Assembly: GCA_964187785.1 (NCBI GenBank)
Contig: OZ076409.1
Coordinates: forward strand, 76,572,001 to 76,636,000
Origin: Amphiscolops sp. MND2022
Lineage: Eukaryota
Reading direction: 5' to 3'
Length of the DNA stretch: 64,000 bases
Shown here: positions 22,903 through 64,000 of the stretch, one piece after another
Position numbering within the stretch: the first letter of the stretch is position 1
Layout of the letters: each line of letters starts with the position of its first letter
Notes under the pieces: generated by a model
The model's input: only the letters and a program-made list of their open reading frames with translations
What the model was told of the DNA's origin: nothing
Databases searched by the model: none
Program-made: the position numbers and the translations under genes

Positions 22903-22921
22903 TGGCGCAGTCAGCAATCTA

Positions 22922-30733: not shown

Positions 30734-30970
30734 ATTGGTGCGACTTGTAAAAGTTCTTGCCTTTTTCTCCTGGATGATTTCTTTTCTCTCAACAATAATA
30801 CAAATACCACTCTCCACCTTTGAAATTCTCTGGAATTGCAGTGAAATCTTTCTAGAATTTCTTGAAAATTTAGTCTGTGACTTTCTGAATTTCATCAATA
30901 ATACATTATCGTTAGAAATACAATTTCTCCACTACAACAATCAATTCAAACATAACAAGTTTTCTTCACT

Positions 30971-32310: not shown

Positions 32311-32649
32311 ATGAACTCTAACGTATACAACCAAAGAGTTCATTCTTTCAAGTTTTACATTCCACCAATTAGCTCACTTCAAAACCCTACATCAGACGAT
32401 TTTGAAAGATTAATTGAACGATATCAACAATATTTTTTCTTTATCATAAATCAACAAAGACATTACCCAAGAGCTCCAACTTAAAGGGATCTATATCAAA
32501 AATTATTTTCAACGTTTCAACCTTCATATTATAACATGTGGGAATTAGTTACCACAGTAGTGCTCATTACAACATACACGTTTTGTGTCTTATTTCTATT
32601 TAGTATTCTCTTTGAAAAAATACTTACAGTGATAAGAGATAAAATCTAA
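32311..32649 (+). pseudogene. Small pre-gag ORF (112 codons, one internal stop) with a C-terminal hydrophobic helix
   Basis: ATG at 32311, internal TAA at 32482, LVTTVVLITTYTFCVLFLFSILF segment, stop 2 nt before the next ATG. Confidence 0.45.
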
Positions 32650-32651
32650 AA

Positions 32652-35600: not shown

Positions 35601-35833
35601 GAAGAACTCCATCTATATCTCCATATAGATCTCCAAACAGAAATAACTCAAATTACAGATATAACTCCCGCTCAAGATACAGATCTCGTTCTCAATCACA
35701 AGAAAACTCCTTTAAACGATATAATTATCCATATAGATCTCCATCAAGACCTAGAGATTTTAGATCACGATCTAGAACACCCTCACGAAACAGACAACAA
35801 AACAGAATAAATCAAGTAGACGTTAAATTATAA
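32652..35833 (+). pseudogene. gag: Element D gag with a long N-terminal extension, capsid, one CCHC and an RS-rich tail
   Basis: MKPFDG..PEEYLQQVE..LTGTALDWY..WNSFVQLFKKQF capsid; CSYCHKNNHGISNC; joining 32652-33431 to gag is inferred. Confidence 0.85.
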
Positions 35834-39970: not shown

Positions 39971-40133
39971 ACTTTCTCAAAATCCTGCTGAAATACAGAA
40001 AGAAAGAAAATTTGAAAGAAAGAAAGAACGTTTGAAACTTAATGTGAAATTGAATGCAAAAAATTTTTTCACAAGTGATAATAAAAGAAAGAAACTCTAA
40101 TTAACATAAAATTAACTAACTTACATTTTGAAG

Positions 40134-41420
40134 CAAACTACCCTAACACAAAAGATTTCAAAATTGATAGACACACTCATTCACCATCATCAACTACAAA
40201 TTATTCATCTTCTAGTTCAACACAATCACTCCAAACATTACCTGAAAAAACAGCATATTTAAACTCAGATACAGAAATACTGGATTCCTCATCCTCAAAC
40301 CCCAGTCCATCCGCTCCATTTACTCCTGATAGAGTACCAGCAACACCCACCAATAAACCTATATCCCAGACTCAAAAACCAGTAATAACAACTCAACCAC
40401 AACCTATTTCACAAAATTTAGTATTTTCAGAAACAAGTTCACCAGTTACTGACTCTAATGATGAAACACTTACAACATCAACTACACAAGATACTTCAAG
40501 TATTTTAAATAGACCTCCTTTCCCACCATTTACTACCACTCGTTCCGTTTATATCCCTGATCCCAACTCAGTTCTGCAATACATAAATTCTTGTCCACAT
40601 AAAATACACACAGCAACTAAAACAAAAAGAAAAACTCCTTTACCTACATTACCACAAGACCTTAACTTACCATCAACAAGTCATACTCCACCCAAACTAC
40701 CACAAGACCTTAACTTACCATCAACAAGTCATACTCCACCCAAACTACCACAAAACCCCAACTTACCATCAACAAGTTGTACTCCAATAACATTCCTACC
40801 ACTACCAGAAACTTCATTAAAGGCATCAGTGAAGAAATTACAACAACACCCAATTCCATCACCATCTGTAAGTTCATTCACATTTTCTCAAACATATCCC
40901 AAACTTGAATTAGAACGTGTACATTCAACCACTACCTCTTCTTTAACAGATTTATATCACAAAGATAAAGATTCTGACTCAACTGTCAGTACTAGAGTAC
41001 CAAGACATAATTACAACCTTAGATCTCAACAACGAAGAAATTCTCAGGAATTACAATCTTCAACTAGTTCAAGTACAAACTCAAGACTAGTTAGACAGCA
41101 CGTTGAACCCAGATTAATTAGACACTTCTTCTCTTTCCTCATCTCAACCCACTATACCATCTTTTTTATCATTACCATTTCAAATCACATCAGGATTTGA
41201 AACAGCTTCTCTTCTTTCTGAAGACCCAATAACTATATCAGATAGCGCAGCTAATTTTTCACAAGTTTATTCACCTAGTTCAATAACATCAAACTCTTCC
41301 ATACAACTACCTGAATAATTTTTAGAAGATTTCTCAAGACCTCCAACACCAAACCCTCACGAATATCCCATCCGTGTTAATTCAAAAATTGTTCGACTTA
41401 ATTGTAGAACAAAATTTTAA
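40134..41420 (+). pseudogene. Ser/Thr/Pro-rich ORF between pol and env
   Basis: Frame open from ~40200 to 41200 without an upstream ATG, then frameshifted; contains a 48-bp tandem repeat. Confidence 0.5.
40651..40787 (+). repeat. 48-bp tandem repeat, ~2.8 copies (PQDLNLPSTSHTPPKL)
   Basis: ACCACAAGACCTTAACTTACCATCAACAAG.. at 40651, 40699 and 40747. Confidence 0.95.
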
Positions 41421-41434
41421 CCAATAATTTAACC

Positions 41435-44010
41435 ATGAATCATATAACTTTTAGCCTATACCTAGTATACATAATACATGTTGTTAAATACATATATATA
41501 TTACACATAGTTCACTCTTTAGTTCACCCTTCAACTGTTCCTAAAGTTGATACAACCAATTCCGAAAATCAAATTTCAGACCAAAACCCCAACAATTTAA
41601 ACTTAATGGTATCCCATTATGATTGTGCAAAACAAAACAACTTAAGCCAATTCAGTTTATTAAATGTTGAACCATGTAAACAAGCACCCTCAGATATACA
41701 ACACACAAAAACCTAAGCAACAGTTTATGTTAGAGCAAAAGCCAAAAGAATAAAAGCCTTTAAATGTGAAGCATATATAAAAACTGAAAAGGTCTGGTGT
41801 TCACAAAAATTCTCATCCAGTAGACGACATGATCGTTTACAATGGGGACAAAACACATTAGAACTTCCAAAAATATTAGACCCCATTGAATGCAAAAACA
41901 TGATAAGATATTTAAACGCGACTGATAGCGAAGAACTAAACAATTACAATATACAAAGCTCTTTCTCATTGTTCGACGATAGTAACTATCAAAACACAAT
42001 TGAACGAATTCAAACACCATTTAGAGTAAAAAAATTAAACACATGGCTTATCGGAACCTTCGTATTCGATGAACATTATCCCGACTGGATAGTTAATGTT
42101 ACACAAAATACATACTCCAGATGTCGAGCCGACCGAGAACATTTAATTACCCGACAAAGTTGGAAACTTAGAATTGTTAACACCGCAATAGATTATGATG
42201 ATAAAAACAATCAATTAATACATGACGGACACATATTACCATGCTATCATTCAGACGGATTTTGTAAACCAACGACAAAAACCCCATATACATTAACATG
42301 GTATGATGAAAAAATTTGCCTCATATTTCAACTTCAAGAATTCATTGGTAGAATGACACGAATTAAAGATAGATATTGGATAGAAATCGATACCTTCATT
42401 GAAACTTCAAACATCACACAAAAACTTCAAACCGAAGGAATACAAGGAACAAGATATCCCACTGTGAAAACACCACAATCAAAAGTAAGTAATCCAAGCC
42501 TTTCTCGACTTGAAATATACCCAATTGCACAAACCTACTGTGGAAAACCTGAACCATTATTCTCAACACAATATGATGACATCTTTGGTACATACTTAGA
42601 TGGTTTTGATATGAACACAGGACAACCAAACCCACACTCAATAATTGATCAAACAATTAGTGGAAACATAAAAAATGATGACTCAAATAAAAGGTATATA
42701 TTCCCTGCATTGAATATATCAAACAATTTCGCCCCTTAGACTATGATGCCCACATTATTACAAAAATTGATTTCACAATAAATCATGTATTTAAATCCAT
42801 GACAGTACAAGAACTAAACACCCTTCATACAATTTGTGAACGGGAAAGAACTCAATTGTTAACAACCTTAGCTATGTCAGTCAAGAATCCTCAATTAGCC
42901 GGTTTTCTTTTAACTGGAAATCGTAGTAACTTTCTCTACGTTGAAGGATCTAGAGCATGGCTGTATGATTGCCCTCATTTTATATCAACACTATACAAGG
43001 CAGATAAATGCTTTGATAGAATTCCCATTTACTACAGAGAAATTATAATGTATGTTGATCCTATAACAAGACAAACTTTTAACTATGCAACACCAATTGA
43101 ATGTGGAAATAACCCACAAAATATAATTGAATTAGACCCAGATTCTAACGACGGAGATTTTTATGTGTTAACACCAGAACCACTCAATTGAGAAGCACCA
43201 CAAATGTTTAAACCTACCCAGTTTAAAACAACAATTATTCCTAATACATTTACCCCCCAAGATGCAGGTATATACTCAAATGCAAAATTAGATCAATTTT
43301 GGAACAGAGTATTATTCGCTAAACACTCAGACACAACTCTTCAATTACTTGGAAAATCATTAAGCTATGATTTCATCACAGTGCATAATGATAAACATTC
43401 CTACTCAGGACATAATCCTTATAATCATTTAAGGATTGGAGTACATGACCACTTGTTAAACTTCTTACCACTTTTCAACCCTGACTGGTTCTGTCAAGCA
43501 ATCATTAATTTCTTTGGATATCCATGTTATGTTTTAACACAATGTGGAATTTACTTTTCAACATTTCTTTTCATTAGAGAAATTTTAACATTTTTACTCA
43601 AATTCTACACAACAATTAGCATAAAATATAATCTCCAAAGCAACATTTCCATTTTGAGTTCAATTGCCCATGGATTTTTTAATATAGTTACATCGGAAAT
43701 GATAACCGATTTGAACAATACAGGAAAACGAAAACGGATATATACTAAACACAAAATCACAACAAGTGAAAATGATAATATCATATTGCCAGAAAAAGAA
43801 TTACCCAAAAAACGAAGATTTTCTGATAATGACTCCCCTTATTTACCTCCTAAATATTCCAGTAAGAATTCAACATTTCAATCACCGCCAAAGACACACC
43901 CAACTAATGTCAACGATATTAACTCTCAGGACTATGACCCAATATTATCAAATGTAATAGCTGTACCGGAAAGTCCTGCTAAAGTCTTTATAAAATTTAA
44001 TCCCTCCTAG
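41435..44010 (+). pseudogene. env: env: class III (chuvirus G / herpes gB-like) fusion glycoprotein with stops and a frameshift
   Basis: Hydrophobic signal; HYDC..FSLLNVEPC; LPCYHSDGFC..W..C; ICERERTQL..NPQLAG; WLYDC..CFDRIPI..YVDPITR..IEC; C-terminal hydrophobic segments. Confidence 0.85.
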
Positions 44011-44450
44011 CTAAAAAGCAAAAACCAAATAAACAAATTAACCTCAGAAAAGTTAAAAAAATTATCAACAAAATTTTCCTCAGTTTAACTTTCATTCAAA
44101 CCCAAATTCTCACTTGGACCAGTCTCTCCTTTCAACTCAACTGAAAATTCATTTGCCCATCACAACTCAACACTCAACCAGAAGACTTCAACTGGATCTT
44201 CAGTCCATCTAAAAGACCGAAATTACAGAAGTTTCTATTCCTGGAATAGATGCCACTGTGATTGTTGATGTTTTCAACCCACAATTGACTCAGTTATTCT
44301 CACACTGTAAGTACAATTTAAACTTCAATTTTAGCAAACAATTTAATGGACAGAAAAGACATAACAAAATTTTTCCTCCTTATTAGAAACAGTATAATCA
44401 AATGTTATAATCATTATTTTAGCTCTACAAAAACACGAAAGTCTAATTAA

Positions 44451-45742
44451 TTGGAATCCTTGCCCGAAATTGATGTAGTTAATTCTAACTCCTCTGAATT
44501 GTTTGCATCCCCTTTGAATATAACTATTCGACAAAATGTTAACGAAGATAATAATTCATCTTCAGATTCCCAAGATCCCATGGAAACTATTCCTATTGAA
44601 CAAGTAGATCATGTTAACGCAAGATCTCAAAATAGAAAGTCTCCAGATATAACTGCAGACAAACCTTTTATGGAATCTGGCGCTTGCCCTCCTTTCATAA
44701 AAGCAGTTAAACAAGATGAAGATAGAGATTGTGAATTAGTTCCTATTCTCTCATCAAAACAATTTACCTTTCAATCTCAGTTAACATCGTTATACATGAT
44801 TCCAACAAAATACAACTTCATCATCAGAGAATTCAAAAATGAGTATCATACTTCAATCGCTTCAAAATTGATTACCCCATATGATTGGTGGTTAAACAAT
44901 AAAGTAAAAATTTTCTCACTCCAATACAACTTCCTCAGACCATCTCCATATGATCTTCGAACCGAAGAAAATGATGCAAATTTTTTGCCATACCAAATCA
45001 AAAAGGCTCATCACATGACTTATCAGAAGTTTCTTCACTACAAAGAGCCCGATAAATATATATTCTTCAACTCCAAATACACGTCGCCATTTACTTTCAA
45101 CTCAGAATACTTGATAGATCATATCAAAACAAAAGGAAAACTTAGAAATTATGATCCGCTTTAACAAAGTTTTTTTTTCCTTCCAAATGATAACCCAAAA
45201 AGACCAATCATTGTACCACAAGAATACCTCATTCTGAACGACGATTCGCTACTACAAGAAGATATACCTCAAAATATATCTGATTCTCTTCCTCCACTTC
45301 AACATATAGCCTCTCAACCTCTGGGAGACTGTGAAAAATCTTACTTTTACGCAATGACCAAAAAGGGATATTCAAATAATGAAATAATTTTCATTATTTC
45401 TCATCTACTTTCACTTCTTACAAATGGAAATACTAAAGAACACAAAAAGACAAAACAAGAATCGCCAAAAAAAACAAAAATGACATTCCTCAACCACAAA
45501 GTTTTCGCCCAACGGACGAATTACAGAAATATACAGAAATTTTGAACATCATAAAACCTTATCATCATCCGAACCGAGATATTCTTATAACAATCGCCGA
45601 AATCGTAAATACTCTTGAACAAGCTCGAAGCATAATACAAAATATCGTATTCGATACGACAAGAATTAGCCAATCAGCTTTGTGTATTCGCACTTCTTTG
45701 GACGAATTCAATTATACTATTGAAAAAATGCACCGATCTTAA
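44451..45742 (+). pseudogene. Post-env accessory ORF(s), unknown function
   Basis: 237-aa open frame plus frameshifted continuations at 45165-45545 and 45542-45742. Confidence 0.5.
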
Positions 45743-47759
45743 CAGGTAATTATGGGATAATAATTTTAAATTGTTAACACTTATCATTTAATCTCTTAAC
45801 AACCTGTCAAAACTAATTGAGTCTACACGCATATGCCTGCTATGCATGATTATATTACCTGTTTCATATTAAAATACTCTTTTGAAATAAAATAATATAA
45901 AATTTTCAACCGCGACATAAAATTTTTAAACAAAATTCCTCAATTGCTCCTCCTTTTAATGGACTGATTTTAACAAATAAGTGCTTATATGAAAGATATT
46001 TAAATACCCTTCAAAAGACTTCCATAATACATCAATTTAATTCTTAAAATTAAAAAGTTATAACATCACAAATTACATAAAAAAAAAATGTCAACTAAGA
46101 AACTCTATTTTAAAAGGAACTTTATTGTAAACAAACTAATCTATTTTAGGTGAATACCGTCACAACTGCTTCATCAGCATTTCTTCCTTCTCTCAAGACG
46201 TCCATCCAAAAAGATTTCCAACGAAATCTTCTACAATTTTCAACAAATTTCTTCATATTCTTCAATATGACGACACTCCATTCTGGTGACATTGATTGCC
46301 CAATAGCTCCTCTTCTTTCCTTCAGCTCGATTGCGATCCCTGATTCTGAAAAAGCATTTAACAACATTAAATACACAGCTCAAGACAGATAAAAAGGCAG
46401 ATCCTCATTTTACAAGAATGATATTGCTCAATATGTTTCAAATATTCCAAATTACACGAATAAACTTTGACAAAAATCTTCAAATTCATAAACATCCTGA
46501 TACATATTCGACCAAACGAGACGCCACTACCCAAACAGAGCATACTACCATCAAGCCCAAACATTTATCACGAAATCTATCTAACAGAATGCGTTCTGAA
46601 ATGGAAAAACAAAACCTAAATTCCTATTGGCTTCAGACAATAACGACGATACTGATGAAGAATTTCAAAAAAACCCTACAGAAACACTTCTAGATGATAA
46701 CTCCCCATACAAAACGTACACTTACGTCTCTTTTTGATATCAACAGATGACATCAACAGCACTCCTCAGATGACAACTTATCTTCCAATCCAAACATCCA
46801 CAACGCTTGCTCGTCACAACTCAGCGCCCGTTCTTCACAACTTCACAGCCGCCCAACAGCTGACCCATCTTCATCCATCTTCCAATCTTCAATCTTCAGC
46901 CATCCAGTTCTCAGCCGAAGAAGATGATAAATAATCAATAATAAAAGAAACTCAAAGAAAAAACATTGTGCATGATAATATTTAAAAAGATTCAAACTCA
47001 TACCGAAAACATTTGCAAAGTATGTATTTCAAATTTCATCCCCACCCATGTTTATTTGCCCTCAAAATCATTTAATTCACACCTTTATCGATGTTTATTT
47101 GCTTTATTTTTAAAGAATACTTAATAATTATCAATTTTTGGTGCTATCCTACCCAAAACTCACATATGTTATTCACAAATCTTTTCAACATTTCAACAAA
47201 ACAAGTTCAAAAAATAAATCAAGCACATTGTTCAAAGCAGATTCGAATAATGACAGACCCAAATTCACAACTTTTCCAACATTTGTTACATAACAAACCC
47301 GCCAAAGTTGACCACAACCTGATATCTTTTCAGACAGTTTTCACACTCGATGAAAAAATCTTATCAACAAAATTTTTTCAATGACTCTTTGACCTTTAAC
47401 TTGTATGATGTTTGCTCACATTTGTTCAATGCGAAGTTCATTCAAAGACTTCAACAGAGGCATAAAATTGAGCAACTACCAGTTCAAAAAACAAGCCGAC
47501 GAAAGCTTAGTGAAAAAGAACACTTTGACGCTTTTTGAACTGTAGTCGCACCTACGAGGTGTCAATCAAAATTTTGACAATTCGAGGTACACCAATGAGT
47601 CGAACTTACACCACTCTTAAAGAGACTTATGCCAATCATCCATCAAATGAAAATTGTTAACTAGCTGAAACGCTAAGAATATTTAAACAAAAAATTTTTT
47701 CTTCATTTTAATTAATGATGCTACTTTAAAATTTTATTTTATTTAAAAACCGGGATGGA

Positions 47760-48029
47760 TGTACTGACCTACATTAATAACCAATAGTATTTAGATGTTT
47801 ATAGAATGTTCTAGAATGTACATTGTTTATTATTGAATGACTGTAAGTCTCTTCTCCCTCAGAGAGAGAAAACTAATAATCAGTATTTGGTTGACTTCCC
47901 TTTTGTTCTACTTCTACCACCTCGAACTAGTTGTAATAAAGTTAGCTAGCTAGCCTGTCTCTTAGCCGCTTTTTAGTAAGTTGTGAATAACACCACCACC
48001 ACACATAACCAACCAGAAAAAGCAGTACA
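47760..48029 (+). repeat. Element D 3' LTR (270 bp)
   Basis: Follows the PPT; TSD ATAT follows. Confidence 0.95.
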
Positions 48030-48426
48030 ATATGACTCATATGATCCACATTTTGTTGCTAAAAACCTGATTGTCTGAAATGTAACAGCAATTGTGTAAA
48101 GTGTTGTAACAGAGAAGATTGCCTTTTTATTCTGTTTTTAGTCGGCACTTTTGGAACAAAAAAGGCCTAACTCTTACAGATTGCTAATTTGTTTCTCCAG
48201 ACCTCTAACTGACAGGTCCACTTTTTGCTACCATACTTTTTGAAGCTTTTGTCGTTTTTATACAACTTAGAAAGTTTGGTTTTGCTTGTTTTTTGCGGCA
48301 TTTGAGATTTTCAAAGCTTCTTGATGTTGCCAAAGTTTTCATTTATGCTTCAAAAGATAGAGGAAAGACTATACAATGTTTCTCTTGTTTGCAAAACAAC
48401 CGAGTTGGCCTCCTTCGATGACCAAT

Positions 48427-50849: not shown

Positions 50850-51310
50850 ATGGAAATCTGAGTTCCGTGACAGTATCGCGTTTCGATATGGCTGGGAACC
50901 CAGAAACCTACTTTCGAAATCCGCCTGCGATGAAAACTTGGTCGTGACCCATGCAATGCGCTGTGCAAGGGGTGGCTTCACACACGTAAGACACACTGAA
51001 ATACGTGACACGTTCGCGGAACTATTGGACGAAATCTGTTTCGATGTCGAAATGGAGCCGATCTTTCAGCCTCTACATGGAAAACACTTTCAAAGAAATC
51101 AACGAGCACTGAAGATGACGCCCGACTTGACATTAAAGCAAACTGTGGGAATCGGCTTCAAATCATACTTCGACGTTAAACTTTTTAAGCCTTTGCAAAA
51201 ATTTGTCCGAATAACATTGACGACGATTATAACGTCCACGAGAACGCTGGAAATTGGGCTTCAACAGGACTTACTTCGACGTTAAAATTTTCAACCCCTT
51301 TGCAAAAAGT
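50850..51310 (+). pseudogene. C-terminal zinc knuckle / restriction-like endonuclease fragment of a CRE-like non-LTR element
   Basis: RYGW..HAMRCARGGFTHVRHTEIRD..EPIFQPL..ARLDIKA..YFDVK; last motif locally duplicated. Confidence 0.75.
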
Positions 51311-51327
51311 TGTCCGGAAGATATATG

Positions 51328-51725
51328 CCCTGTTTGCCGAATCCCATTTTACCGAATCCCACTTTGCCGAAAGCATGGGACATTTTGCCGAATTTTTTTT
51401 GGCAAAGTGGGCATCGAAATTCGGCAAAGTGGGCAAGACAGTTGTCTACATCTGCAAAAACAGACTATTATGCTATAAAGTGATTCAAAGTATAAAACGT
51501 GTCTCGGATATGTCCCCATTTCCTCGGTGAGGGCGAGCGTGCTTACATCGGAGATGCCCCACATTATATTTTCGCTCTCCAAAAGTCTGTTTTTGCAGAT
51601 GTAGAAAACTGCCTTGCCCACGTTGCCGTGTTTCGATGCCCATTTTGCCGAATTGCGATGCCCACTTTGCCAAAAAAAATTCGGCAAAATGGGAGAGGTA
51701 GGGACACTTTGCCGAATTCGGCAAT
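51328..51725. mobile_element. Foldback/MITE-like element with inverted arms built of TTTGCCGAA subrepeats
   Basis: Arms 51381-51466 and 51584-51691 are imperfect reverse complements. Confidence 0.75.
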
Positions 51726-51729
51726 GTAA

Positions 51730-51820
51730 ATGGTCACTTGGCTTAATGCCATTTGGCTTTAATACAATTGGTCACTTGGCTTGATTTTTTTAAGCTAAGT
51801 GTCTCGGGTATTGGTCACTT
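51730..51820. repeat. GGTCACTTGGCTTAA subrepeat cluster (probable non-autonomous DNA transposon), resuming at 56353-56800
   Basis: Motif at 51732, 51770, 51813 (split by the Copia) and 56723; inverted variants at ~56746 and ~56786. Confidence 0.5.
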
Positions 51821-54800
51821 TGTTAGAGATCGATGAAGGTCAAAGGACCATTAAAGGTCAACCATCTCAGACTATACCAGACTGAACTAATTTAGTATAA
51901 TATTGTTGTTTGTAAACATGTACCTGTTATTTTATCTTCACTTGACTGAATCACGTTATCAACTCACAACACAAAATAAAGTATTGACAATAACCACTCT
52001 TCACCAATCTTCCGACAACCCAGCTACGACCAGAAGGAGCCCAGGCCCTAATATGTTATGGGCCCAGCAATTTGGTGAGTTTGTTTTTTTCAAAAACTTT
52101 TTTCTGCCTACTTTCACTATGCTCGCCTGATCTTATTTTTCGTTCTCCATGGCAACTACTGCGGGACCACTTCAACAGCACCGAAACACCGAGATTGATG
52201 AAACTATTGGAGAAGTTCACAACCCTGCGATTGGACCCCACGGAGAGCATGGTTGACTACCTGACTCAAGAAGAGTATGTGAGTAAGCAGTTGGAGCTCG
52301 CTGGTGAGAAAGTTTCTGAAAACATGTTAACTTCGATAGTTCTTAAAGGTTTGCCTTCCGAATATGACTATTTCAAAACTGTGCACGATTTTTCGAAAGA
52401 TACGGCGTCTTTTGCGGAAGTAAAGAAAGCATTAAAAAAATTTCGAAAGTTCTCGTAACCTACAAACTGCGACAGCTAACAATGAAAAGGTTGCTTTGTT
52501 ATCCAAAGGAACTGTTGCGAAAAGTTCCTCACGTAAACCTGAAAAGTTCACTAGGAAGTGTAGGCGTTGCGGTAAAAGTGGACATAAACAAGCCACTTGT
52601 AGAGCATCCGAGTGCACTTTTTGCAGGCGTTTTGGCCATGAAGAGAATAAATGTTTTAAGAAAAACCTTCTTTTGAACCCTAAGTCAAGTGCTGAGACAG
52701 GAGAGTCAAACCTAGCTGAGGACATAGTTTTCTTTTACAATGGTAGTGAGACTGCACTCACTAGCCAAAAATGCGAGGTGAAGGAGCACACTTTGGTCAT
52801 CGACTCTGGTGCTTCCTCGCATATGTTTTTTGACCGTTCTCTGTTCTTCGACTCGAGCGAAGAAACACAACGCAAAGCAAAAATGCGAATGGGACTTTTT
52901 CGCAAGTTGAGGGTGTTGGAAAAGTTTCTCTTTTACTTTTGGACAAAAAAGGGATCGAACGCTGTGTGACATTTTCCGATTGTCTTTTTCTTCCTGATCA
53001 TTCTCATAACTTGATCAGCGTTAGCAAGTTGAGACAAAACGGGGCTCAAGTGAACTTCGGACAATCTCTGAGCATTTTTGTCAATGAAAGAGCAATTATT
53101 CCTTTTGAAGAGCACGCTAATCTTTACATTTTGAAAGGGAAGACACTTGATTTTTGCTCTTTTTCCGGCAAAAACGAAAAGGCGGTGTTGTGGCATCATC
53201 GCCTTGGTCACAACAATTTCAAAAATGTGAAACGTTTGGCTCATCATGTTTCGGGGATGAGCTTGAAACACAGTGCTTTTGATAAACTCTGTTGTTGTGA
53301 AGTTTGCAAAGTTTCTAAGTCACGACGGCAACCAGTATCGCGAAAAACGGAGAAACGAAAATCTTCGAAACTTGATCTCGTCTCCACTGACATTTTGGTA
53401 CCGATGCCAACTACTTCGGTTGGTGGCAATCGATACGCTATTTCTTTTACGGACAGCTACAGCAGGTACTCAGCGGTATATTTCCTCAAATCGAAAGAGG
53501 AGTGCCTAGATAAATTCAACGTTTTTTGTGCGCAAGTGGAACGCCCAGGGCAATCCGTTCTGATAATGGTAAAGAGTACATTTCCAAGTCTTTTCGAAGT
53601 TTTTGTATATCAAACCGAATCAAACGTGAGCATACTGCCCCTTATTCGCCTCATCAAAAGGGTGTTAGTGAACGCTGCTGGCGAACAACAGTCGAAATGG
53701 CTCGCTGCATGCTAAAAACCGCAAAACTCGGCAATGAATTTTGGGTTCGGGCCTTACACACTGCTTTTTACATTTCAAACCGTTGCCTCACAGTTAGTTT
53801 ACCAAAAGGTAAAACGCCCTTCGAAATGTTCTTTGGTAAAAAACCAGATATTTCCAACTTGAAAATTTTTGTATGTACTGCTTTCAAACACATTGAAACG
53901 CATCAAGACAAACTTTCCGATAAAGCCACCAAAGAAGTTTTTGTTGGTCATTCTGAGGATTCCGAAGCATACATTTTGTACAATCCTTATTCTAAAAGGA
54001 CTTCGGTTTCTTGCAACGTCTCCTTTGATTAGACTTCTTTTGACTTTTTTGCTGCGCACCCAAGTGAAAACATCCGAGCATTTGTAACCGAAAAGCCGTC
54101 ACCGAAACAAGTTTTGACTGAAACACAGAAACACTTTTGCGAAAAGCCTTCAGTTCCTATTTTACCGACTGAAACATTGAATGATTTCGAAACTGAAACA
54201 ACTCCTTCCCCGTTGATGTTGTTTCATCTGAAAACATTGATGCCAATGAAAGTAGTGCTTTTTTGCGTTCTCGAAGTGGGAGAGTTATCGAACCTCCTGC
54301 GTATCTCGACGACTACGTTCTTTTAACGGATGACATGGATGAGAATCTAACTTATCGTGAAGCAATGATGTCATCGCTTAAAAGCGAATGGATCGAAGCA
54401 ACTCAAAAGGAGTACAATGCGCTCATTGAGAACAAGACCTGGTGCTTTCTCCGCTTCCCCCGGGCAGAAAAGCAATTGGAAGCCGGTGGGTTTTCAAAAT
54501 TAGGCGACACGACGACGGAACTATCGAAAAATTCAAGGCTCGTTTCGTAGCGCAAGGGTTTTCGCAAGTTCTTGGGAACGATTACGAAGAAACTTTTGCG
54601 CCTACTGCCAAACTTTGTACCTTGAGGATTTGTTTTGCGCTCGCTGCTTCTTGATCGACTTTTGTTTTTCAGTTAGACGTCCGTTCAGCCTTCCTCAATG
54701 CGAACTTGAGTGATGAAATTTATATAGATCAACCAGAAGGCTTCGCGCAAGCGGGGGCTAATGGTGAAACACTTTATTGCAAGCTTCAAGAACGCCTTTA

Positions 54801-56352
54801 TGGTTTGAAGCAAGCAGGGAGGGAGTGGAACAAAACTTTAACCCAGTGGTTTTTGAAGAACGAATTTGTACAGTCTGCCGAGGATCATTGCCTTTTTCGT
54901 TGCGATGGGACTAATGGTTCCCAACTTTTTGTACAAGTTTGGGTCGACGACATTTTGTACTTTTCAAACAACGACAAAATGCTGCATGATTTCAAGGCGA
55001 AACTCAGCGATGCATTCAGCATCGATGATCGTGGGAAAATGACTTGGTTTTTGGGATGCAATGTTGAACAGTCACGCGGTCGCATTTTTCTTAGTCAGCG
55101 GTCATATATAAAGGACATTTTGCGCAGAAGTCATATGTCTGATTGTAAACCAGTCAGTACTCCAGCTTTTCCCCATACGAAACAGTCTAAATCGGACTGC
55201 CCTATCGAAGGTAGTGAAAAGTCACTTGATATTTGCGAACAGAAACAATATCGTAGCTTAGTTGGAAACTTAATGTATTTGTCCGTTGTTAGTCGCCCCG
55301 ATATTTGCTTTGCTGTCTATAACTGCACAATTCGTGTCAAATCTTGGTAAAGCCCATTGGTGTGCATTGAAACACCTTCTCCGTTTTCTCAAGGGCACCG
55401 AGTCTCTATCTCTTGTGTATAACCGCTCTGAAAATCTCGAACTTTTTGGTTTTTCGGATTCCGATTGGACCACCGACAATGACGATCGCAAGCCAACTTC
55501 GGGTTTTAGCTTCAAACTAAGTCATTTTGGTAGTGATGTCTCTTGGGCGTCCAAAAAGCAAGGGTGTGTGGGACTTAGGTCTTGTGAAGCCGAGTATGTT
55601 TCGTTGGCTTTGGCTGCACAGGAAGCAGTCTATTTGCAAGCCTCGGTCACATTCTTCTGCTTGATGACGGTGGACACGCCTGTTCTGTTGTGTGGTGACA
55701 ATCAAGGGGCACTCGCACTCTCAAAGTCACAAAAGTGCTAAACACATAGAAACCCGACACCACTTCATCCGTCAACTGGTTGACGACAAACGCATTCAAG
55801 TGTCTAATGTCTCCACAAAGAACAACTTGGCTGATATCTTCACCAAGCACCTACCAAAGCCTGCCTTCAATGAGCTCTCATCGCAACTCTTCGTCATTCA
55901 GCCACCTCGATCAACAACTTAACCCTTGCCTCCCTCACAACTCAATTATTTTACATTACTCATTATTGTGTTTATGTTGTCACTGGGACTATCACGACTT
56001 TCAGCTTCTCTTCAATTGATGGATAGAGCCTTCTCAACCGCTGCCATGACACGACAGATGGTCAAGAAGCACAGTGGTTCGCCATCATCAACCAACAACA
56101 GCCCTCGGAGTCTCTCATCGAGCGGGGATTGATGAAGGTCAAAGGACCATTAAAGGTCAACCATCTCAGGCTATACCAGACTTAACTAATTTAGTATATT
56201 ATTGTTGTTTGTAAACATGTACCTGTTATTTTATCTTCACTTGATTGAATCACTTCATCAACTCACAACACAAAATGAAGTATTGACAATAACCACTCTT
56301 CACCAATCTTGTGACAACCCAGCTACGACCAGAAGGAGCCCAGGCCCTAATA
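51821..56352 (+). mobile_element. Element E: Ty1/Copia LTR retrotransposon (4.5 kb), decayed
   Basis: LTRs 51821-52053 and ~56127-56352; TSD CACTT at 51816-51820 and 56353-56357; PBS TGTTATGGGCCCAG (half-tRNAiMet type); PPT GAGCGGGG. Confidence 0.95.
52072..55922 (+). pseudogene. gag-pol: Copia gag-pol (gag 5'-truncated; PR-IN-RT-RNase H order)
   Basis: Two CCHC, VIDSGASSHM, LWHHRLGH, RSDNGKEY, KARFVAQGFSQ, LYGLKQAGREW, VWVDD, FSDSDW, KHIETRHHFIR. Confidence 0.95.
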
Positions 56353-56901
56353 CACTTGGCTTAAAGTCATTTGACTTAAAACCACTCAGTTGAAAACACG
56401 TGGCAGATTTTGTCGGACTTATCATTATAACGTAGTCAGCGTATTATTATAACATGTCATACCAAGTACCCCTCGGATATTTCCCCATTTCTTCTAGTGC
56501 CCTGCGGCCCTTTGGGGCCGCTTATATTCCCATCTTGCTCAGCGAGGTCGAACAGGAGCAAGGACCTAGCGGGAACGGAGATCGCGAAGCGATCGTATTG
56601 GGAGCTGGTCTTTGCGACGGTGAGGGCGAGCGTGCATACAACGTATATGCCCCACATTATGATATTTCTGGGAGTTGACTTATTTATTCCGTGAGTTGGA
56701 ATGGAGTTGGCTTAATTTTGTGGTCACTTGGCTTAAAATTTTCAAGCCAAATGACTCGACGAAAAAATTAAGCGAAACGGTATTTGGCCAAGTGACTGGC
56801 AACCTTCGAGAAAATGGGTTTCGGCAAACTGTCCCATATTCGTCCGGAAAACATTGCCGACGCCTATAACTTCCACGATAACGCGAAGAAGTTGAAGTAT
56901 G

Positions 56902-57638
56902 TGTAACGATAAGCGCCGGCGCTTGAACCGCAACGTAGAGTGGAGGAACTAGAACAGCGAATATAATCTGGGACTTAGATATCCGCGGCCCTAGCTCATT
57001 TTCCCTCCGAAGGAGCCAGTCCCAAGGTGGGGGAACCGTCTTGTAAGAAACTCTCTGGCCTGGTCTGTAACTGCTAAAAGTAACAGGCATCTTGCATAAC
57101 TCAAGACCACTGCTCAACTAGCCTTTAAAAAGGGGGCTGAAAACAAGAGGAGGTTGAGCCATAGTATTGGAGAATCTGATAAAATCGACATATCCAAACA
57201 GGTAAATATAGATGTTCAAGGGCAGCTCTCGAGCATATCAATCTACATCATAGTGAAATACAACAAAATTAACAGTTTGAGTCATTTTGGTAGAAATTGA
57301 CCTTGGCTCCCATCGCTAACGCTCGTCACCACACAGGACACTGCAAGGATACTCAGGCGAACATCTGGAACACGGGTTTCCGGTACTACAGTAGTGTCGA
57401 TCTCTTGGGATGGGCACAATACCGTGTTTTTTAGACAAAAAGTACGTCTTTTTGTGTTTTCTTGCGTTCGCTCTTCGCGGGCGGCGATTTCTAATTTTCT
57501 GGGGTGCTTTTCTGGCAGGTACTTCATCTTGAGCATGTTTGAGTGCCACGTCAGATTTGAACGAATTTTTGGCAAAATTTCTGAACATGTCGAGTTGCAA
57601 AATCGGTGGATATTGCTGTACCAGAGCTTGCCGTTACA
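56902..57638 (-). repeat. Probable 3' LTR of element F (737 bp)
   Basis: TGTAACG..CGTTACA termini; preceded on minus by purine-rich GAAGCCCGGGGAGTGA; partner LTR is outside the window. Confidence 0.7.
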
Positions 57639-58404
57639 TCACTCCCCGGGCTTCTGGCTTGTCGTCCCTGGCAAGCGGCGTCTGGGCTCGTCTAGAAACT
57701 GCGTCACCATGACTGCTGGGAACCATCATCCACACATCAGGGGACAAGGACAAGTCCTTGTTTTTCAGCAACAATTTTGGTCAATTTTCGCGGTTTTTCT
57801 CAAAGAAAATCTTACTGCCTAGTATTTTTTACAAAAATGCAAACGAGGTTTCAGCTCGAGAGCTAAGTTTTTCAGTTGGTTAAAACTCGTTTGGGCAAGC
57901 AGTTTTCGCTAAAAATTCTTTTGCGACCAAGGTCAGCTGAAATCTCTTTTTTTATGCAATTTGAAATTTACAGTTTTCAGTCAATTTCGGGCAACGTAAA
58001 ACTTTTTTTGGGAGGGCGCAGATTTGTCTACTCCTCAGACAGTCGATAGAAGATGCTTGAATAACAAAACACAAGGAAAAACAGCAAAAACTGTAACTAA
58101 AAGGCTAAGACTTTTTCTTGACTATGGCAACTCAAAAACACCGCGAACGGTGCGCAACGAAAATAGCAGTTTTCTCTGGTAACAGTTTCCTTTTTTAACT
58201 TTGTAGGCCAAGCAGCTGGGGCAGGCGCACTCTATTGGCCGTACACCCAGCGCAATACTAACAATACATTAACTAAGTAATAACTATGAACAAAAAATTG
58301 CACCATGTACGGGTAGCACCGGTTAAAGCGATAAGTTTGAAGGCACAGTTTCGGCAGAGTTTAGAGTCTATAGGGAGCGCGAACGCTCCCATAGGCGGCA
58401 GGGT

Positions 58405-61400
58405 TCATTGGGCTGAGCTGCGTCGAGCTCGATTCTTGGTGGCATCATCGGAAGTTCCTGGATTGCTAGCATCTTCCAACGCAACTGACGCTCTACGTTG
58501 AGCAGGAATTACAGTAACTACTGTTTCCGAGTCTGATAGGTCTTCTGGGAGCTCTAAATTGGCGATCGGCTGCACCAGGATAGTGTTGGGGGTCAGTTCA
58601 GCGGCGTGTTCTCCGGTTTGGGGTTGCGATGACTGAGGACTGGCCTGCGACGACGGGGGACTGACAGGCTCTGGGTTCAAGACGCGAGTGGGTAGATCAA
58701 GGGTTATGGGTCGCATGCTGGGTCGTATCCGCGACATGGCCATTGTTGGTGCGAGCATGGTAGGCGCGAACGCCTGTTGTCTGGCGGTCTCGGCTCGACT
58801 CTCCACAGCCAAGGATACTCGCTTGGAAATCCAGCCAGGCTGATTCCAGAGCTCGCAGGCTCGCTTCCTTTTCGGGAAGTTGGCAATCTCTAGTTCCAGG
58901 CAACGTCCCTTCCATTCTGCACGGGCTTCGGAACCTAGGACGGAATTTATCTCATCGTGTAACACGATTGACATATCTCCTGATATTGTCATTTTTGCTT
59001 GAGGCCTCCATACAGATTTTCGGGGAAACGGAGTAATGCGACACCGAAGATTTCGCTGTCGAATTTGGGCGGCTCCTTCAATCCAACCTGGGATTTGTCC
59101 CAGTTCCAGATGTTGGATCTGTCGGTTTAGAGTCTCAGGGGCACGACCAACGGGCTTCGCTCTGGGCCATCCCCGTGGTTCTTTCCAGTAATGGTTTGGG
59201 AAAGTGATGCACCGGAAACTGTAGAGTGGGTCTATGGGTGGACCAGCACTAGTGCTGGCACGGATCACCTTGCGAATGAATTCTTGGGTGCATGGAAATC
59301 GGAAGGGGACTCCATTCAGACTGAGAGGGGCGGAGTACCAATTGATTGGGCCGTACTCCCGCGGCAAAGGACACACTTTCGCGTGCGAGCACGCAGTAGC
59401 CCCATCAAATTCTCCTCCAACTGTTTCTCAGACTTCAGAGTAGTGTACCCATGCGGCATTTCTCCACTCAGTACGGCCTGTACAACGCGTGGGTAAGTCA
59501 GTGAGGGGCGTCCTTGAAGATAGGTGCAGAAGGATACCATATGTACCTGCACTGCTCTCGCGAGGGGTTTAGTTGGGTACCTGCACACACCAATTGCGCC
59601 AAAAATTGGGGCCAAAACCGGAGCCATTGTAGCCACAAAGTCCTCCACTTCTGCTAACGTCAGTTCAGCGAGTTGCTGTGGCATGGGAAATCCGGCCAAC
59701 TCCCAGGGTATCTGGCGCTCCGCATTATGTAGAGGTTGCGACTAATCCACGCCTACGAATAAACCAGAGGCGAATACCAGGGTGGAGTACAACCAATGTT
59801 GGATCGACGCACGCATGCGCTCCAATTGGGCGGAATAGTTTTGCTGGTCCTTGGAATTCGTGAGGTGACCCCAGCGGGTCAGGCTGCGGAGTTGTCCCTG
59901 CGCAAGGACCAGATAGCTGTAGAAGGTGATTAGGTCACCAGATGTCACGATGTCGATTAGGAGAGCCAGAGGTCCAGCCACAAACTTTGTCGGGCCCATC
60001 GTTAGCGCGAGCGCTAACACTTCTCCCACTGTAGCCTCGCCGATGGTTTCCAGTAGTTTGTCGGCCTGCACATTGGTGAGCGAGAACTCGGCGGTGATTA
60101 CATCGATGTTCCAGCCCAGACCGAGACTGGTACAAAAGGCTTCCAGGGGGCAGTCGTGCTCTCGAGCCACTTCCGCCAAGGTTCTATTCACGAATCTGGT
60201 CTGGTACCAGTGGGCGTAGGTAATACTAGCTGCATCCACCTCGTTCTTCAGGTTGGTTGCTTCGTTGACCACGATGTGCCTGATGCCCACGGGCAGCTTG
60301 ACGGGCTCGATTCCGGTAGCAAAGTGAATCTGAGGGATTGTCCGCTCGACCGTGCGCGCAGCAGGCCATGCTTCGATTTACTTCACTAATTCAGCTAGTT
60401 CTGCACGTACGGGGACTTCCTTGTCTTTACGCACCAGCTAGTTATAGCGACGGACAGCTTCTCGTTCACTTACGTTGCGCTCTCGCATGACACGATTGCC
60501 GTCCAGGTCGAAGGCCATTCTTCCCATGCACATTCCATGGTCAAAAAGCACGGCGTCGTCTATGGTCAACTGCGCATTCCCCGAACGCTCTACAGCGATC
60601 AGTACGCGGGATATGGCAGCGAAGAAGGCTGGGTATGACAGTGCGTCAGGGCGCAGATCTCCATGGTCCACCCTAAGGTTTGGTGCGCAGATGGCAAAGT
60701 CAATCCTGCGTGCCTTGCACACTTCTAACAGGATATAAACGAACTGTTGCAAACTCTGCTGCCAGTACATGAATCTTGGCGGGGATACGAAGAGCGCTAG
60801 CGCTCCCAGACGACCCCGAAGGATCCTTGCGGCACGCTCCATCGCATCCGCAACGAACGATGTTCACCAAGGTAGCGACGTTCCCAGGTCGACGGGTGTC
60901 ACCCATGATGGTATCCAGGTCACGCAACAATCCTTCGCACGCAATGTGGTCCAGCAGATTGGCAAAAATCACTCTCGGTGGGGGTGGCTCTTTCAGTGAC
61001 CCTCTCAGGTTCGGGTCGTACATTACCCCGATCATTTCGGCAATCTCGGCGAAACGGGACAAAGGCATCGTCAACACAAGTACGTCAGGCATCAGGTTGT
61101 CGATGGGTAGGTCGTTTCTGCAGGTGGAGTCCACTGCCACACAGTAGCGCGCGCGCTGCAAAGCTGCTTTTAATAGGGGTTTCATGGACACAACGTTACG
61201 GGCATAGCGGGCATTTGCTTCCCACGTTTCGCCATCTCGTAGTGTGTACCGCGCGGGAAATTGCTCGGTAATGTTGTGTTGCAGGGGCGCCATATAGTCG
61301 TTAGGCGTCATGGGCAGTTGCTCTCGACCACGCTGCTCCCAGGCTTGCTCGGACATATCTGCATCACGGGGACGCAGTACTCGTGTAATCTGTGCAGCGA

Positions 61401-62712
61401 TAGTGATTCGGTTCACTTCTTTCTGGTCAGCTTCTGTCGGAGGTGCTCTCCTTCTGATTGCACACATGTTCGAACATAGACGTTCTGCGGCCATCCAAAT
61501 TCGCTTACTGTTGCTGGTTGCTACAGAGCCAGATACATCGTCGGATGGTGGTAGGAAGGCTGGCGGGCTGGCTTCCTCAATCGCTCCTGGCACATCCAAA
61601 GACATCTCGGCGGAACCCGTGCCCGAGGGCACGGAGCTCACTTCAGGGCCGGCCTCCGCGTCGCCATATTGCTCAATCGCCTCTCGCATGGTCAGTTGGG
61701 GCGCACCTCGGTCCAGGTGGCCAACACGATATGGGGGCCTGACTATTACTATACTCTTCATCTGGGGTTGCTGAGGCACATCTGCACGCTTGTCCGGAGG
61801 AGGACGACTGGTTGGACTTTCCGTCCCCGAGCCAGTGGGGGCAGAGGCGGCACTTTCTCCCGTTACTCGCTTCCGTCCAGTTTCTTCACGTGGGCCAGTC
61901 GCGGTACTGCCACTTGGAGCAGCCGTGGTACTACTGCTTGGTCCAGCTATGGTCTCGGTGTCCATGGATGCTGTTTCGGCTAGAGTGGTGGGAGCTTCGC
62001 AGCCCAAGGGCTGAGCGGCGGCTTGCAAGTAGTTAGCTAACCCCGGAATCCTTTGTTCTACTGCCCGAACGAAGTCGGATGAGTTGGGATGGGATAGTTG
62101 GCCACGGCTTGCAGGGCCACTATCTATCACTGCCTGTTCGCCAGTGCTTCGCCCAATGAGATTCAGGTTCGGCACGGGTGGTAACCGGGACCCCGAGGGC
62201 TCCCGATCAGAGACTCGTTGATTGGTTGAAGGAATCTGCTGAGTTCCATATGGTGCTCCAAAAGCAGGCGAGCCAGAGTAAGTTGGCGTCATCGACACTG
62301 AATTCGGTGCTACAATTGGCAGCAACGAGGGAGCACTGGCAGGCATCATTCTCAAGGAGGCCTCTTGTTCAAATTTGGTACCTTGGCTGGCGCCGTATAC
62401 CGCTGTGGATCGTTCGTCTAGAAATTGATGGGTAAGGTCGTAACCATCCCAGGCGCCATTGGCACATGTCAAGGCACGGCAGTAGCCAGCTACCTCAGTT
62501 ACAATTGAGAGTGACACGCCCGGCAGCGTTTGCATGGTGTCAAGCTGAGTAAGTAATGCTGCTACACCAGCGATGGCCACTGGCGGAAGGCCATTTCGTA
62601 ACCTGTCTTCTACAAATTGGGCCTGATTGACCCTCTGCGCTCGCGCAGATTCCTGAGGCCTTGCACTACTAGGCCCTGTTGCACGCACGGAGTTGCTTGG
62701 GCAGTAGGCCAT
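58405..62712 (-). pseudogene. ~1430-codon accessory ORF with a central SGNH-hydrolase-like domain
   Basis: Pieces 62712-60700, 60842-60438, 60290-59742, 59699-59316 and 59376-58405 join via 2 frameshifts and in-frame stops; blocks CVAVDS, RVIFANLLD, GDLRPDALSY. Confidence 0.65.
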
Positions 62713-63001
62713 TATTTCATAGGTCTAAAAAGGATGACTGTTAGGTTTACCCGGTGAGTGTTGGTGGGAGCTTAAGGCTCGTCACCCAGTTACAGTGATA
62801 CAACATCGGCTCCTTAAGGGAACCGTAACGAACTCAAATCTAACTAAATTACCTAGAACAAAAACATTTGAAGGAGTAACATAACAAATTAATATTTTGG
62901 TGGCAAGAGTGTTCAAGACTCTTCCAGGGATATTACAATCAGGCAATGGTAAAGGGGGAAAAGGGGTAGATTTAAATGACGAGGCTATTTCAGCCTTATA
63001 C

Positions 63002-64000
63002 TTATATTGACACATACACGCGGCTGTGTGAAACCACATGAATACCAGTACCCTCGAACATGTTCGCTAAGGCATGGTACAGATTGACCAACGAGAAGGT
63101 AGGTCTCTCGGGGTCCAAAATGGGCACATGGACCCGTGCGGATCCCTTGTCCATTAAGCGCTGTACTAGGTGTGTCATGCAGCGCAAATAGTCGTCGGTC
63201 AGCAGCGGCGCACGCTGGTTTGCTCGTACTATCAGCAGATGAACACTTTGGTTGGGGTTTGGATTAACATCAGGGGGATGGTGAGCATCTCGCCCACCTT
63301 AGGCCGCAAGGAGAATACTTTTTCTATGCCACATTCTCGCAGCACGTATCGCAAGGCGGCTGAGTTAGTTTTCAGGTCAGCGGGGCATGCTAACACAATG
63401 TCGCCTTCTGCTTGCAAAAAGTCAGTTTCGTCGTACGAGACATGTTCGGCTGAATTTGGATATAGGGCTCCCGGGTAAACAATTTCTCGTCCGGGTCCAT
63501 TATCGGAGAGAAGGCACACGCGAGGCGCGCGTCCTTGAATCGCAGCCAGGTCTTGCCATACCGAGCGTGGCATCGCTCGATTGTCGCTGCCGGCTTTGAC
63601 CCATGTATCCAGAGTCACCAGGGCGGCTTTTGGGAACAGAGGGACCTCAAATGTGTGAGTCTACTCATCTAGCAATCGAATTCTGGGATAGGTGGCGAAG
63701 CAGGTAATGATTAGTTCTAACCACCATGCAAACTTTACCTTGCCCCGATACCAATCTACGATGTGGAAGCAAAGTATCTAGTCCGTAGTAGTCAGGGTTC
63801 TAAGACTCACTAAACAGGACAGCAGGTGCAGCGGTTCCACGATAGTCTCCACTCGTGGAGCAGTAACCAGCAACCACCAATGAGGGGCAGGACTGTATAC
63901 TCCACCCGGTTCCACTTGCACTCCGTACTTGTCACACAACAGGTCAGAAGTGATGCACCGGGCCATTTGCACGGGTTCCCTTTCAAAATTGAATGGTCCA
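63002..64000 (-). pseudogene. C-terminus of an ORF ending in tandem macrodomain-like (OARD1/Poa1p-type) units
   Basis: DFLQAEGDIVLACPADLKTNSAALR..PKVGE..LLIVRA..RVHVPIL..LANMFEGTGIHV; similar upstream unit WLLVTAP..LCFHIV..LELIITCF. Confidence 0.6.

Follow-up and report, generated by a model that had tools for sequence, protein, structure and literature searches.

Bdelloid rotifer Vesta LTR retrotransposons carry a GDSL/SGNH ORF3, for which a membrane role has been proposed (Rodriguez, Kenefick, Arkhipova 2017, PMC5408684). The invariant catalytic residues of this ORF3 are intact, it lacks transmembrane and coiled-coil domains, and in that paper catalytically dead GDSL derivatives are reported for the Penelope-like Athena-L elements only. 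An SGNH fold is also borne by ORF1p of ZfL2-1 and of other CR1/L2/RTEX elements, and the ZfL2-1 esterase binds liposomes even when its active site is mutated (Schneider et al. 2013, PMC3905857). Two further proteins can be compared, as far as the available text of the sources goes. The gypsy-type element Cer1 of C. elegans encodes CERV, an accessory protein made from a spliced mRNA and needed for genomic RNA export; besides a pseudo-enzyme domain, CERV has two unassigned domains, flexible linkers and a putative signal for nuclear localisation (Sun et al. 2023, PMC10309623). OSK of insect Oskar (PDB 5A4A) is a non-catalytic, RNA-binding SGNH fold, which follows a small N-terminal domain and a disordered linker (PMC10792757, PMC7250577).

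We examined a window of 64,000 nucleotides from Amphiscolops sp. MND2022, in which a giant reading frame starts 289 bp downstream of a Ty3/gypsy pol tail and is followed by a polypurine tract (PPT) and a likely 3' LTR (Table 1). Because of this position between the pol tail and the PPT and likely LTR, we call it ORF3. Its product is predicted to share with Vesta ORF3 an SGNH fold encoded behind pol of a gypsy-like element, in the place of env. In contrast to the Vesta protein, it retains one of the five catalytic residues, and the predicted fold is part of a multidomain protein of 1430 aa. The ZfL2-1 protein, as described in the accessible part of PMC3905857, differs in belonging to a non-LTR element, in its gag-like position, active full triad and basic membrane face, and in being much smaller. 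The first-pass annotation had named non-LTR ORF1p as the SGNH precedent; this is correct, but SGNH/GDSL ORF3s of LTR elements had already been described in bdelloid rotifers. SGNH ORF3s in LTR elements are thus known already, and what sets the present one apart from those of the rotifers is the loss of most catalytic residues together with the extra domains. Our search of the literature since 2018 (main texts, few subscription journals; an earlier description is possible) found no GDSL ORF3 in gypsy retrotransposons and, with the same limited coverage, no LTR retrotransposon with a macrodomain and an additional ORF. The main text of PMC13524379 contains no SGNH, esterase or macro, and PMC4695847 proved not to be relevant.

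Table 1. Features of the ORF3 locus (positions in the window)
Feature	Position	Strand	Remarks
Ty3/gypsy Gag-Pol C-terminal tail	63002..64000	-	broken in this copy
Candidate splice acceptor	62725..62745	-	CTAAC, pyrimidine tract, AG; 12 nt upstream of ORF3 ATG
ORF3	58405..62712	-	~1430 codons, broken in this copy
Conserved N-terminal domain (~residues 21-110)	62383..62652	-	without signal-peptide-like stretch in this copy
Basic motif RKR ... SP ... PPDKR in disordered linker	61786..61875	-	conserved
SGNH-fold domain with N-terminal extension	60572..61305 (core 61155-60572)	-	model of P0008
Block I-III catalytic sites in this copy	61128; 61062; 60954		Ser kept; Leu at Gly site; Leu at Asn site
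Block V catalytic sites in this copy	60662; 60653		Gly at Asp site; Arg at His site
All-helical domain, ~180 residues	59771..60308	-	confidently modelled
Pro/Gly-rich hydrophobic segment	59580..59645	-	conserved; acidic side before, basic after
Conserved C-terminal region	58896..59579	-	poorly modelled
Polypurine tract	58186..58200	-	13/15 purines
Likely 3' LTR	56902..58184	-	1283 bp, TG...CA, directly after PPT

The first-pass annotation had placed the ORF in the env position of an LTR element, and the identity of the frame upstream of it, the tail of a gypsy pol, agrees with this. Seven of the 10 matches of this frame carry an integrase core and three also RT, and the Ty3/gypsy order PR-RT-RNase H-IN is seen in the relatives P0080, P0083, P0258 and P0267, which are 41-93% identical over the tail. 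RT and IN were judged through these relatives; in this element those domains, like the 5' LTR, fall beyond the window end. Within the 64-kb window there is no second copy of the 1283-bp likely LTR, an unrelated repeat flanking it extends to 56884, and Rfam gave 0 matches across 56000-64000. The linkage of pol and ORF3 was observed in one copy, the present one, and no genomic context of ORF3 relatives was found in metagenome contigs or viral contigs, nor any eukaryotic locus; one 816-bp contig with a relative lies in a bacterial MAG. The candidate splice acceptor suggests that ORF3 may be expressed from a subgenomic mRNA.

In the pol tail we also observed two possible degenerate macro-like domains, which are candidates. 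An Atlas lead of 0.87 pointed to a cluster in which 15% of the members carry Macro, and hhalign against Macro/DarG-type sequences gave P=0.034 over 109 columns, with 2 of 20 control windows reaching similar P over 30 columns.

The present copy of ORF3 is damaged by two frameshifts (near 60858 and near 59380) and three internal stops (60440, 60380 and 59744), and it contains a short out-of-frame stretch (~62124-62090) between two compensating shifts. The single giant ORF claimed earlier was borne out by tblastn, since intact relatives tile 62712-60856, 60860-59319 and 59379-58408 at 72-84% identity, which makes ORF3 one unit. Unbroken relatives have 1426-1521 aa (P0006 1426, P0009 1435 and P0017 1456 aa). 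When 8000 candidates were scored, 16 long relatives were found at E<=5e-68, and 629 cluster representatives match ORF3 at E<=0.001, so the similarity is not due to chance. The protein clusters of the relatives have 173-657 members, with full-length ones in every cluster (7, 5, 2 and 2 of the 15 listed for each), and the family carrying ORF3 is one of abundant, high-copy Ty3/gypsy retrotransposons. A search with alignment A5, weak by the tool's own note, gave no further long distant relatives among 6327 candidates.

A quick tree of ORF3 contains at least seven long-branched lineages. The core is retained across at least seven lineages with identity down to 23%, and therefore the folded parts of ORF3 are, judging from these alignments, under constraint. 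Between the P0006 and P0017 lineages the SGNH region is 50% identical (35% to P0241) and the N-terminal domain 38-40%, and the helical domain keeps 42-45% between lineages. The corresponding values are 12-29% for the linkers and 16-23% for the linker next to the N-terminal domain.

The SGNH-like motifs that the first-pass annotation had quoted are all four present in the minus-strand translation where it placed them, and the fold it proposed agrees with structure modelling. The SGNH region of P0008, an 81%-identical relative, was modelled at pLDDT mostly 80-98, and its structural match spans 61305-60572, taking in the range proposed for the fold (60560-61160). The best matches have Z 11.0-11.2 and rmsd 3.5-3.6 with ~180 residues aligned (PAF-AH 1bwp: Z 11.0, rmsd 3.6, 180 aligned), and by title ~40 of the best 50 matches listed are esterases, lipases, acylhydrolases or O-acetyltransferases. 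From this model, ORF3 is predicted to have a three-layer α/β SGNH fold. The intracellular PAF acetylhydrolase Ib alpha (1bwp, 1wab) and bacterial GDSL lipases (3p94) match best, N-terminal extension included (Z 10.7-11.2), but they are active enzymes and only 8-13% identical to ORF3; several bacterial proteins reach equal Z values, so these matches do not point to a particular donor. The ZfL2-1 esterase is not among the structural matches listed for the P0008 model. Foldseek alone returned nothing at E<=0.001 for the SGNH-region model (best E 0.021), and the SGNH signal is absent from the searches of Pfam, PHROGs, PADLOC, PDB sequences and Atlas features for this part. Designer-PPR matches in the PDB sequence search were rejected as summed repeats.

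We placed the catalytic positions by motif and strand order, rather than by residue-level superposition, using the SGNH block definitions in the available text of PMC10792757. The block I nucleophile Ser is present in 76/81 sequences, preceded by Asp in 78/81. On the contrary, the oxyanion-hole Gly of block II is found in 3/88, the P0241 lineage retaining it, and the oxyanion-hole Asn of block III in 0/88, while block V has the catalytic Asp in 7/93 and the His in 1/94. Arg occupies the His site in 86/94; the Arg that the first-pass annotation had noticed is therefore the state of the family, and its suggestion of a pseudo-enzyme is probable. The block V Asp it had quoted is one position out of register, and thus the catalytic Asp is also missing. 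As aligned, the SGNH domain of ORF3 lacks four of the five catalytic residues and keeps only Ser. Other polar residues are near-invariant, namely a His just past block III (83/88), an Asn three residues ahead of the block III Asp (86/88) and a further Ser (87/95). The His is replaced in two deep lineages, by Asp in P0241/P0245 and by Tyr in P0221. The net charge of the SGNH region is -2.

The hydrophobic helices of the first-pass annotation held in part: most of what it described is a helical domain that looks soluble, together with one borderline hydrophobic segment. The helical domain was modelled at pLDDT 78-98 over P0040 residues 21-190 and 80-95 in the P0008 model. The best structural match had Z 2.8 (rmsd 4.5, 91 aligned), with 18 of 48,161 chains at Z>=2, which implies neither a novel fold nor a difference from known folds; a second structure comparison gave 0/360, and a comparison with viral models had a best E of 0.46. 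The comparison for two copies within the domain scored 0.00 (alignment unused, fold uncertain). The hydrophobic segment reaches a Kyte-Doolittle 19-mer value of >=1.6 in 31/39 sequences covering it and is modelled poorly (pLDDT 44-64). It is a candidate membrane hairpin, or it may lie buried in the core of a domain that the model renders poorly. The basic motif in the linker is present in 13/18 sequences examined, from four lineages, by a pattern defined post hoc from the same sequences, and absent in 5/18, the P0241 lineage included; it is a candidate nuclear localisation and phosphorylation site.

Since the SGNH fold is present without most of its catalytic parts, a docking helper is likelier than an enzyme, and we tentatively favor a non-catalytic intracellular adaptor that would attach the RNA or the particle of the element to a membrane of the host. 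The ORF3 mRNA would be subgenomic and produced by splicing. In a binding pocket that may have been retained, the conserved Ser could act with the Arg found in place of His to hold an anionic group, e.g. a phospholipid head, the Pro-rich hydrophobic segment would insert into one membrane leaflet, and the flexible linkers would carry the modules to Gag or genomic RNA. The leaning towards membranes draws on the ZfL2-1 precedent, in the available text of PMC3905857, and on the hydrophobic segment. Several observations stand against the adaptor. First, its SGNH region is slightly acidic, whereas the ZfL2-1 esterase has a basic binding face. Second, the hydrophobic segment may be mere domain core, and the conserved basic motif suggests a nuclear destination. 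Third, the kept His and Asn leave room for a rewired active site. Finally, the Foldseek result, the hydrophobic N-terminal extension confined to one lineage (see below) and the pol linkage from one copy weigh against it.

It is possible, if rather unlikely, that ORF3 is instead a nuclear RNA-handling scaffold like CERV or OSK: made from a spliced mRNA and imported via the basic motif, its dead SGNH domain would bind unspliced genomic RNA for export or germ-line localisation. The candidate splice acceptor ahead of the ATG and the basic motif with its SP site argue for it, as do the precedents of CERV, a spliced pseudo-GTPase, and of OSK, in the accessible text of PMC10309623 and PMC10792757. 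The likeness to CERV is architectural and does not imply homology, as CERV has 517 aa, shares exons with gag and has a G-protein-like fold, not SGNH (PMC10309623, available text). OSK matches the P0008 model at Z 7.5 (rmsd 5.8, 171 aligned), but it is 45th of the best 50 matches, beneath ordinary esterases. Moreover, it is a host germ-plasm gene with Asp at the nucleophile site (PMC10792757, in the available part), whereas ORF3 keeps Ser. The scaffold also leaves the conserved hydrophobic segment unexplained, and the basic motif is missing from the sequences noted above. A nuclear RNA role and a membrane role fit ORF3 about equally well.

We consider it unlikely that ORF3 is still catalytic, as a hydrolase or acyltransferase whose active site has been rewired, in which Ser would act with the His past block III, Asn and Arg would shape the pocket, and lipids or acylated host defence proteins would be the substrates. 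The near-invariant cluster of Asp, Ser, Asn, His, Arg and further Ser, and the block II Gly of the P0241 lineage, are consistent with such an enzyme, but the His is lost in two deep lineages and the canonical Asn, Asp and His are lost throughout.

The ORF3 product does not look env-like, and it is very unlikely to be an unusual envelope or surface protein for particle exit and entry. Its position, the borderline hydrophobic segment and the hydrophobic stretch by which 9/35 N-termini, all of one lineage, are extended upstream speak for an envelope, and a signal peptide could come from a spliced leader. On the other side, by hydropathy there is no signal-like stretch in this copy or in 26/35 N-termini, an in-frame stop lies four codons upstream of the ATG in this copy, and long regions are disordered and Pro/Ser-rich. 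Four of five full-length sequences (P0006, P0009, P0017 and P0055) have no internal furin-type site; basic tetrapeptides are confined to the extreme C-terminus in P0006 and P0009, are absent from P0017 and P0055, and occur twice in P0241. No C-terminal transmembrane anchor was found, the last 130 residues being hydrophilic. That ORF3 derives from a captured host gene and either travels as neutral cargo or has nothing to do with the element is hardly credible despite the single pol linkage and relatives without genomic context, in view of the large clusters that each list full-length members, the domain-restricted conservation down to 23% identity, and the PPT and likely LTR directly downstream.

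ORF3 goes unseen by Pfam and by position alone would be mislabelled env, and its confidently modelled helical domain is a target for structure determination. A wider proposal, which we regard as doubtful, is that ORF3 represents a new type of accessory gene in Ty3/gypsy elements, a dead esterase of great size and age whose helical domain may have a new fold. It would take over from env by attaching the element to lipid carriers or membranes of the host, so that the element passes from cell to cell or reaches the germ line, while a Pol ending in tandem dead macrodomains would act against host ADP-ribose defence. It is a standing question why SGNH esterases are captured by retrotransposons time and again; their activity has been taken to be important, although the sole biochemical study found membrane binding to be independent of catalysis (PMC3905857, in its available text). 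Since the fold is kept in at least seven deep lineages after the catalytic loss, ORF3 separates binding from catalysis and makes this question testable.

The first-pass annotation had described a giant frame in env position with blocks spaced like those of SGNH hydrolases, and all sequence motifs it quoted were found in the minus-strand translation of this frame (ORF3). Since intact relatives tile ORF3 end to end with 72-84% identity, it is a single gene of ~1430 codons, broken in this copy. The last eight residues are kept between lineages in all seven tails examined, which are otherwise <20% identical between lineages.

Features of ORF3, its host element and the neighbouring elements in the window
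Feature	Position	Strand	Remarks
ORF3, ATG to stop	62712-58405	minus	617 codons without interruption, then two other frames carry on
Short compensated shift	about 62124-62090	minus	this copy
Frameshifts	near 60858 and 59380	minus	this copy
Stop codons	60440, 60380, 59744	minus	this copy
Confidently modelled SGNH-like part	61305-60572	minus	residues 64-307 of relative P0008
Predicted all-helical domain	60308-59771	minus	~180 residues, behind SGNH domain
Last eight residues of ORF3	58408-58431	minus	R-x-R-x-x-S-A-[T]-Q type
Two-codon upstream frame	62710-62720	minus	stop overlaps ORF3 start codon; directly behind candidate splice acceptor
Gag-Pol tail	63002-64000	minus	ends at 63002, 289 bp ahead of ORF3
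Polypurine tract	58200-58186	minus	behind ORF3
Likely 3' LTR	58184-56902	minus	1283-bp TG...CA segment; far end 18 bp from unrelated repeat
Gypsy element, 13.6 kb	954-14563	minus	LTRs ~2250 bp, 96% alike, ending in AG, not CA
195-codon frame inside LTRs of 13.6-kb element	3167-3754		overlaps LTR edge
Compact gypsy element	22699-28596	plus	LTRs ~205 bp; 5-bp target duplication at ends
Gypsy-type element, 17.5 kb	30463-48031	plus	LTRs 273 bp, 98% alike
Env-like frames with Cys of 17.5-kb element	41717-44010		behind pol; more unassigned frames reach 46693
Decayed copia element	51828-56352	plus	226-bp LTRs
Palindromic MITE-like repeat	about 51200-56884		contains the copia element

The frame entering at the window end has 10 matches among 573 candidates and corresponds to the C-terminal tail of long polyproteins; seven of these matches contain an integrase core, and three of the seven RT as well. 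The domain order in these relatives is protease, RT, RNase H and integrase, and complete Gag-Pol relatives comprise 2966 and 2974 aa. With the pol tail upstream and the polypurine tract and likely 3' LTR downstream, the gene is an ORF3, and the entire element would be ~16 kb long. Ahead of the ATG, and ending 12 nt from it, lie CTAAC, which resembles a branch point, then a pyrimidine tract and AG, as expected if ORF3 is expressed from a spliced subgenomic mRNA.

In the Gag-Pol relatives P0080 and P0083, the polyprotein continues ~900 residues beyond the integrase core: first comes a disordered region, then a Cys cluster (CxxC..CxC) and, at the extreme end, two possible degenerate macro-like domains. 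The pol tail in the window may hold such domains as well, but they are a lead only: their motifs follow the order of those in DarG-type domains, and the alignment spans 109 columns with a score that controls can also reach. Two other relatives, P0258 and P0267, contain ~300 conserved residues without a Pfam match between protease and RT, where bdelloid Vesta and Juno elements carry a dUTPase; by this resemblance, the region may be a dUTPase-like domain that has degenerated. The window consists of stacked LTR retrotransposons, and the priming sites of the neighbouring elements look more like those of animals than of plants. The first env-like frame of the 17.5-kb element gave no match in Pfam and PDB sequence searches.

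When 8000 candidates were scored with the middle piece of ORF3, 16 long relatives were obtained, each an ENA protein that carries neither a name nor a Pfam domain. Four ORF3 clusters contain 581, 657, 173 and 491 members, with 7, 5, 2 and 2 full-length proteins (1426-1521 aa) among the 15 listed per cluster. A profile search of 1.84 billion representatives gave 629 matches at E<=0.001; 48 of the best 150 shared <55% identity with whichever of five references was closest, and the farthest relatives showed 23-30% identity. At least seven long-branched lineages appear in a rapidly built tree of 16 selected rows, whose deep order is unreliable. One relative (P0197, L001:3-815) is filed under a Bacteroidota MAG as a hypothetical protein; its contig (816 bp, 3.9-fold coverage) is probably host DNA binned by mistake.

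The structure was modelled on P0008, a natural relative with 81% identity to the window copy, using 147 sequences (mean pLDDT 68.8, pTM 0.55). The confident part resembles SGNH/GDSL hydrolases, with PAF acetylhydrolase (Z 11.0-11.2, rmsd 3.5-3.6, ~180 aligned residues) and bacterial GDSL lipases tied. About 40 of the 50 structural matches listed are, by title, esterases, lipases, acylhydrolases or O-acetyltransferases, and the remaining ~10 are presumably SGNH folds as well. Foldseek also ranked the SGNH family first, yet with no match at E<=0.001. Catalytic positions were placed by motif and strand order, not superposition, in 129 aligned hits, with each column counted only where a residue is present and blocks defined as in PMC10792757. 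The Ser of block I is kept in 76 of 81 sequences, while the Gly of block II (3/88), the Asn of block III (0/88) and the Asp of block V (7/93) are mostly lost; the block V His site holds Arg in 86 of 94 and His in one, and its few Cys and His would fit decay of Arg codons. The ORF3 protein thus has a predicted SGNH hydrolase fold but lies outside the canonical enzymes. The polar residues around the site form a near-invariant cluster, including a His after block III (83/88, missing in two deep lineages), which implies that the pocket still serves some role, be it binding or non-canonical catalysis.

The helical domain, which is unassigned, reached pLDDT 78-98 when modelled on its own. Behind it comes a hydrophobic segment rich in proline and glycine, with acidic residues ahead of it and basic ones after it; this segment scores >=1.6 (Kyte-Doolittle) in 31 of 39 sequences and is poorly placed in the models. 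In the disordered linker, 13 of 18 sequences, belonging to four lineages, share a basic motif that surrounds an SP site; the pattern was defined post hoc, and its shuffle control (0-1 in 500) therefore overstates the case.

We tentatively read the ORF3 product as a non-catalytic intracellular adaptor docking at a membrane, on the basis of the observed position, family, conservation and residue pattern and of the two predicted folds. The chief outside support is the esterase of the non-LTR element ZfL2-1, which binds liposomes without its catalytic residues (PMC3905857). That binding depends on a basic surface, however, and the net charge of -2 in the ORF3 SGNH region counts against a similar mode. 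A nuclear scaffold for RNA export or RNA localisation is a doubtful reading but nearly as likely: the Oskar domain OSK is also a dead SGNH fold and binds RNA, and CERV of Cer1 shares the build of a pseudo-enzyme with unassigned domains and linkers (PMC10309623). A rewired enzyme is unlikely, with the canonical residues mostly lost. Vesta ORF3s, as described in PMC5408684, are SGNH/GDSL proteins that lack TM domains and whose catalytic residues are intact; the present ORF3 at best works alike and, by its catalytic residues, is not a member.

An odd env would be very improbable: no C-terminal anchor was found, four of the five full-length sequences lack a furin-type site in their interior, and there is no signal-like stretch in 26 of 35 N-termini, the window copy included, the other nine having a hydrophobic upstream extension confined to one lineage. 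Least credible is neutral cargo, as the P0006 and P0017 lineages are 50% identical over the SGNH region, 42-55% over the next two blocks and 38-40% over the small N-terminal domain, against 16-29% in linkers and tail; this modular conservation is, at the sequence level, the pattern given by selection on a protein.

The finding itself is real, and the literature covered, which is incomplete, yielded no earlier description of a dead SGNH fold inside a 1430-aa multidomain ORF3. As a membrane adaptor, the protein would be expressed by splicing, its SGNH pocket would bind an anion or lipid, the hydrophobic segment would form a monotopic hairpin, and the protein may thereby tether RNA or the particle.
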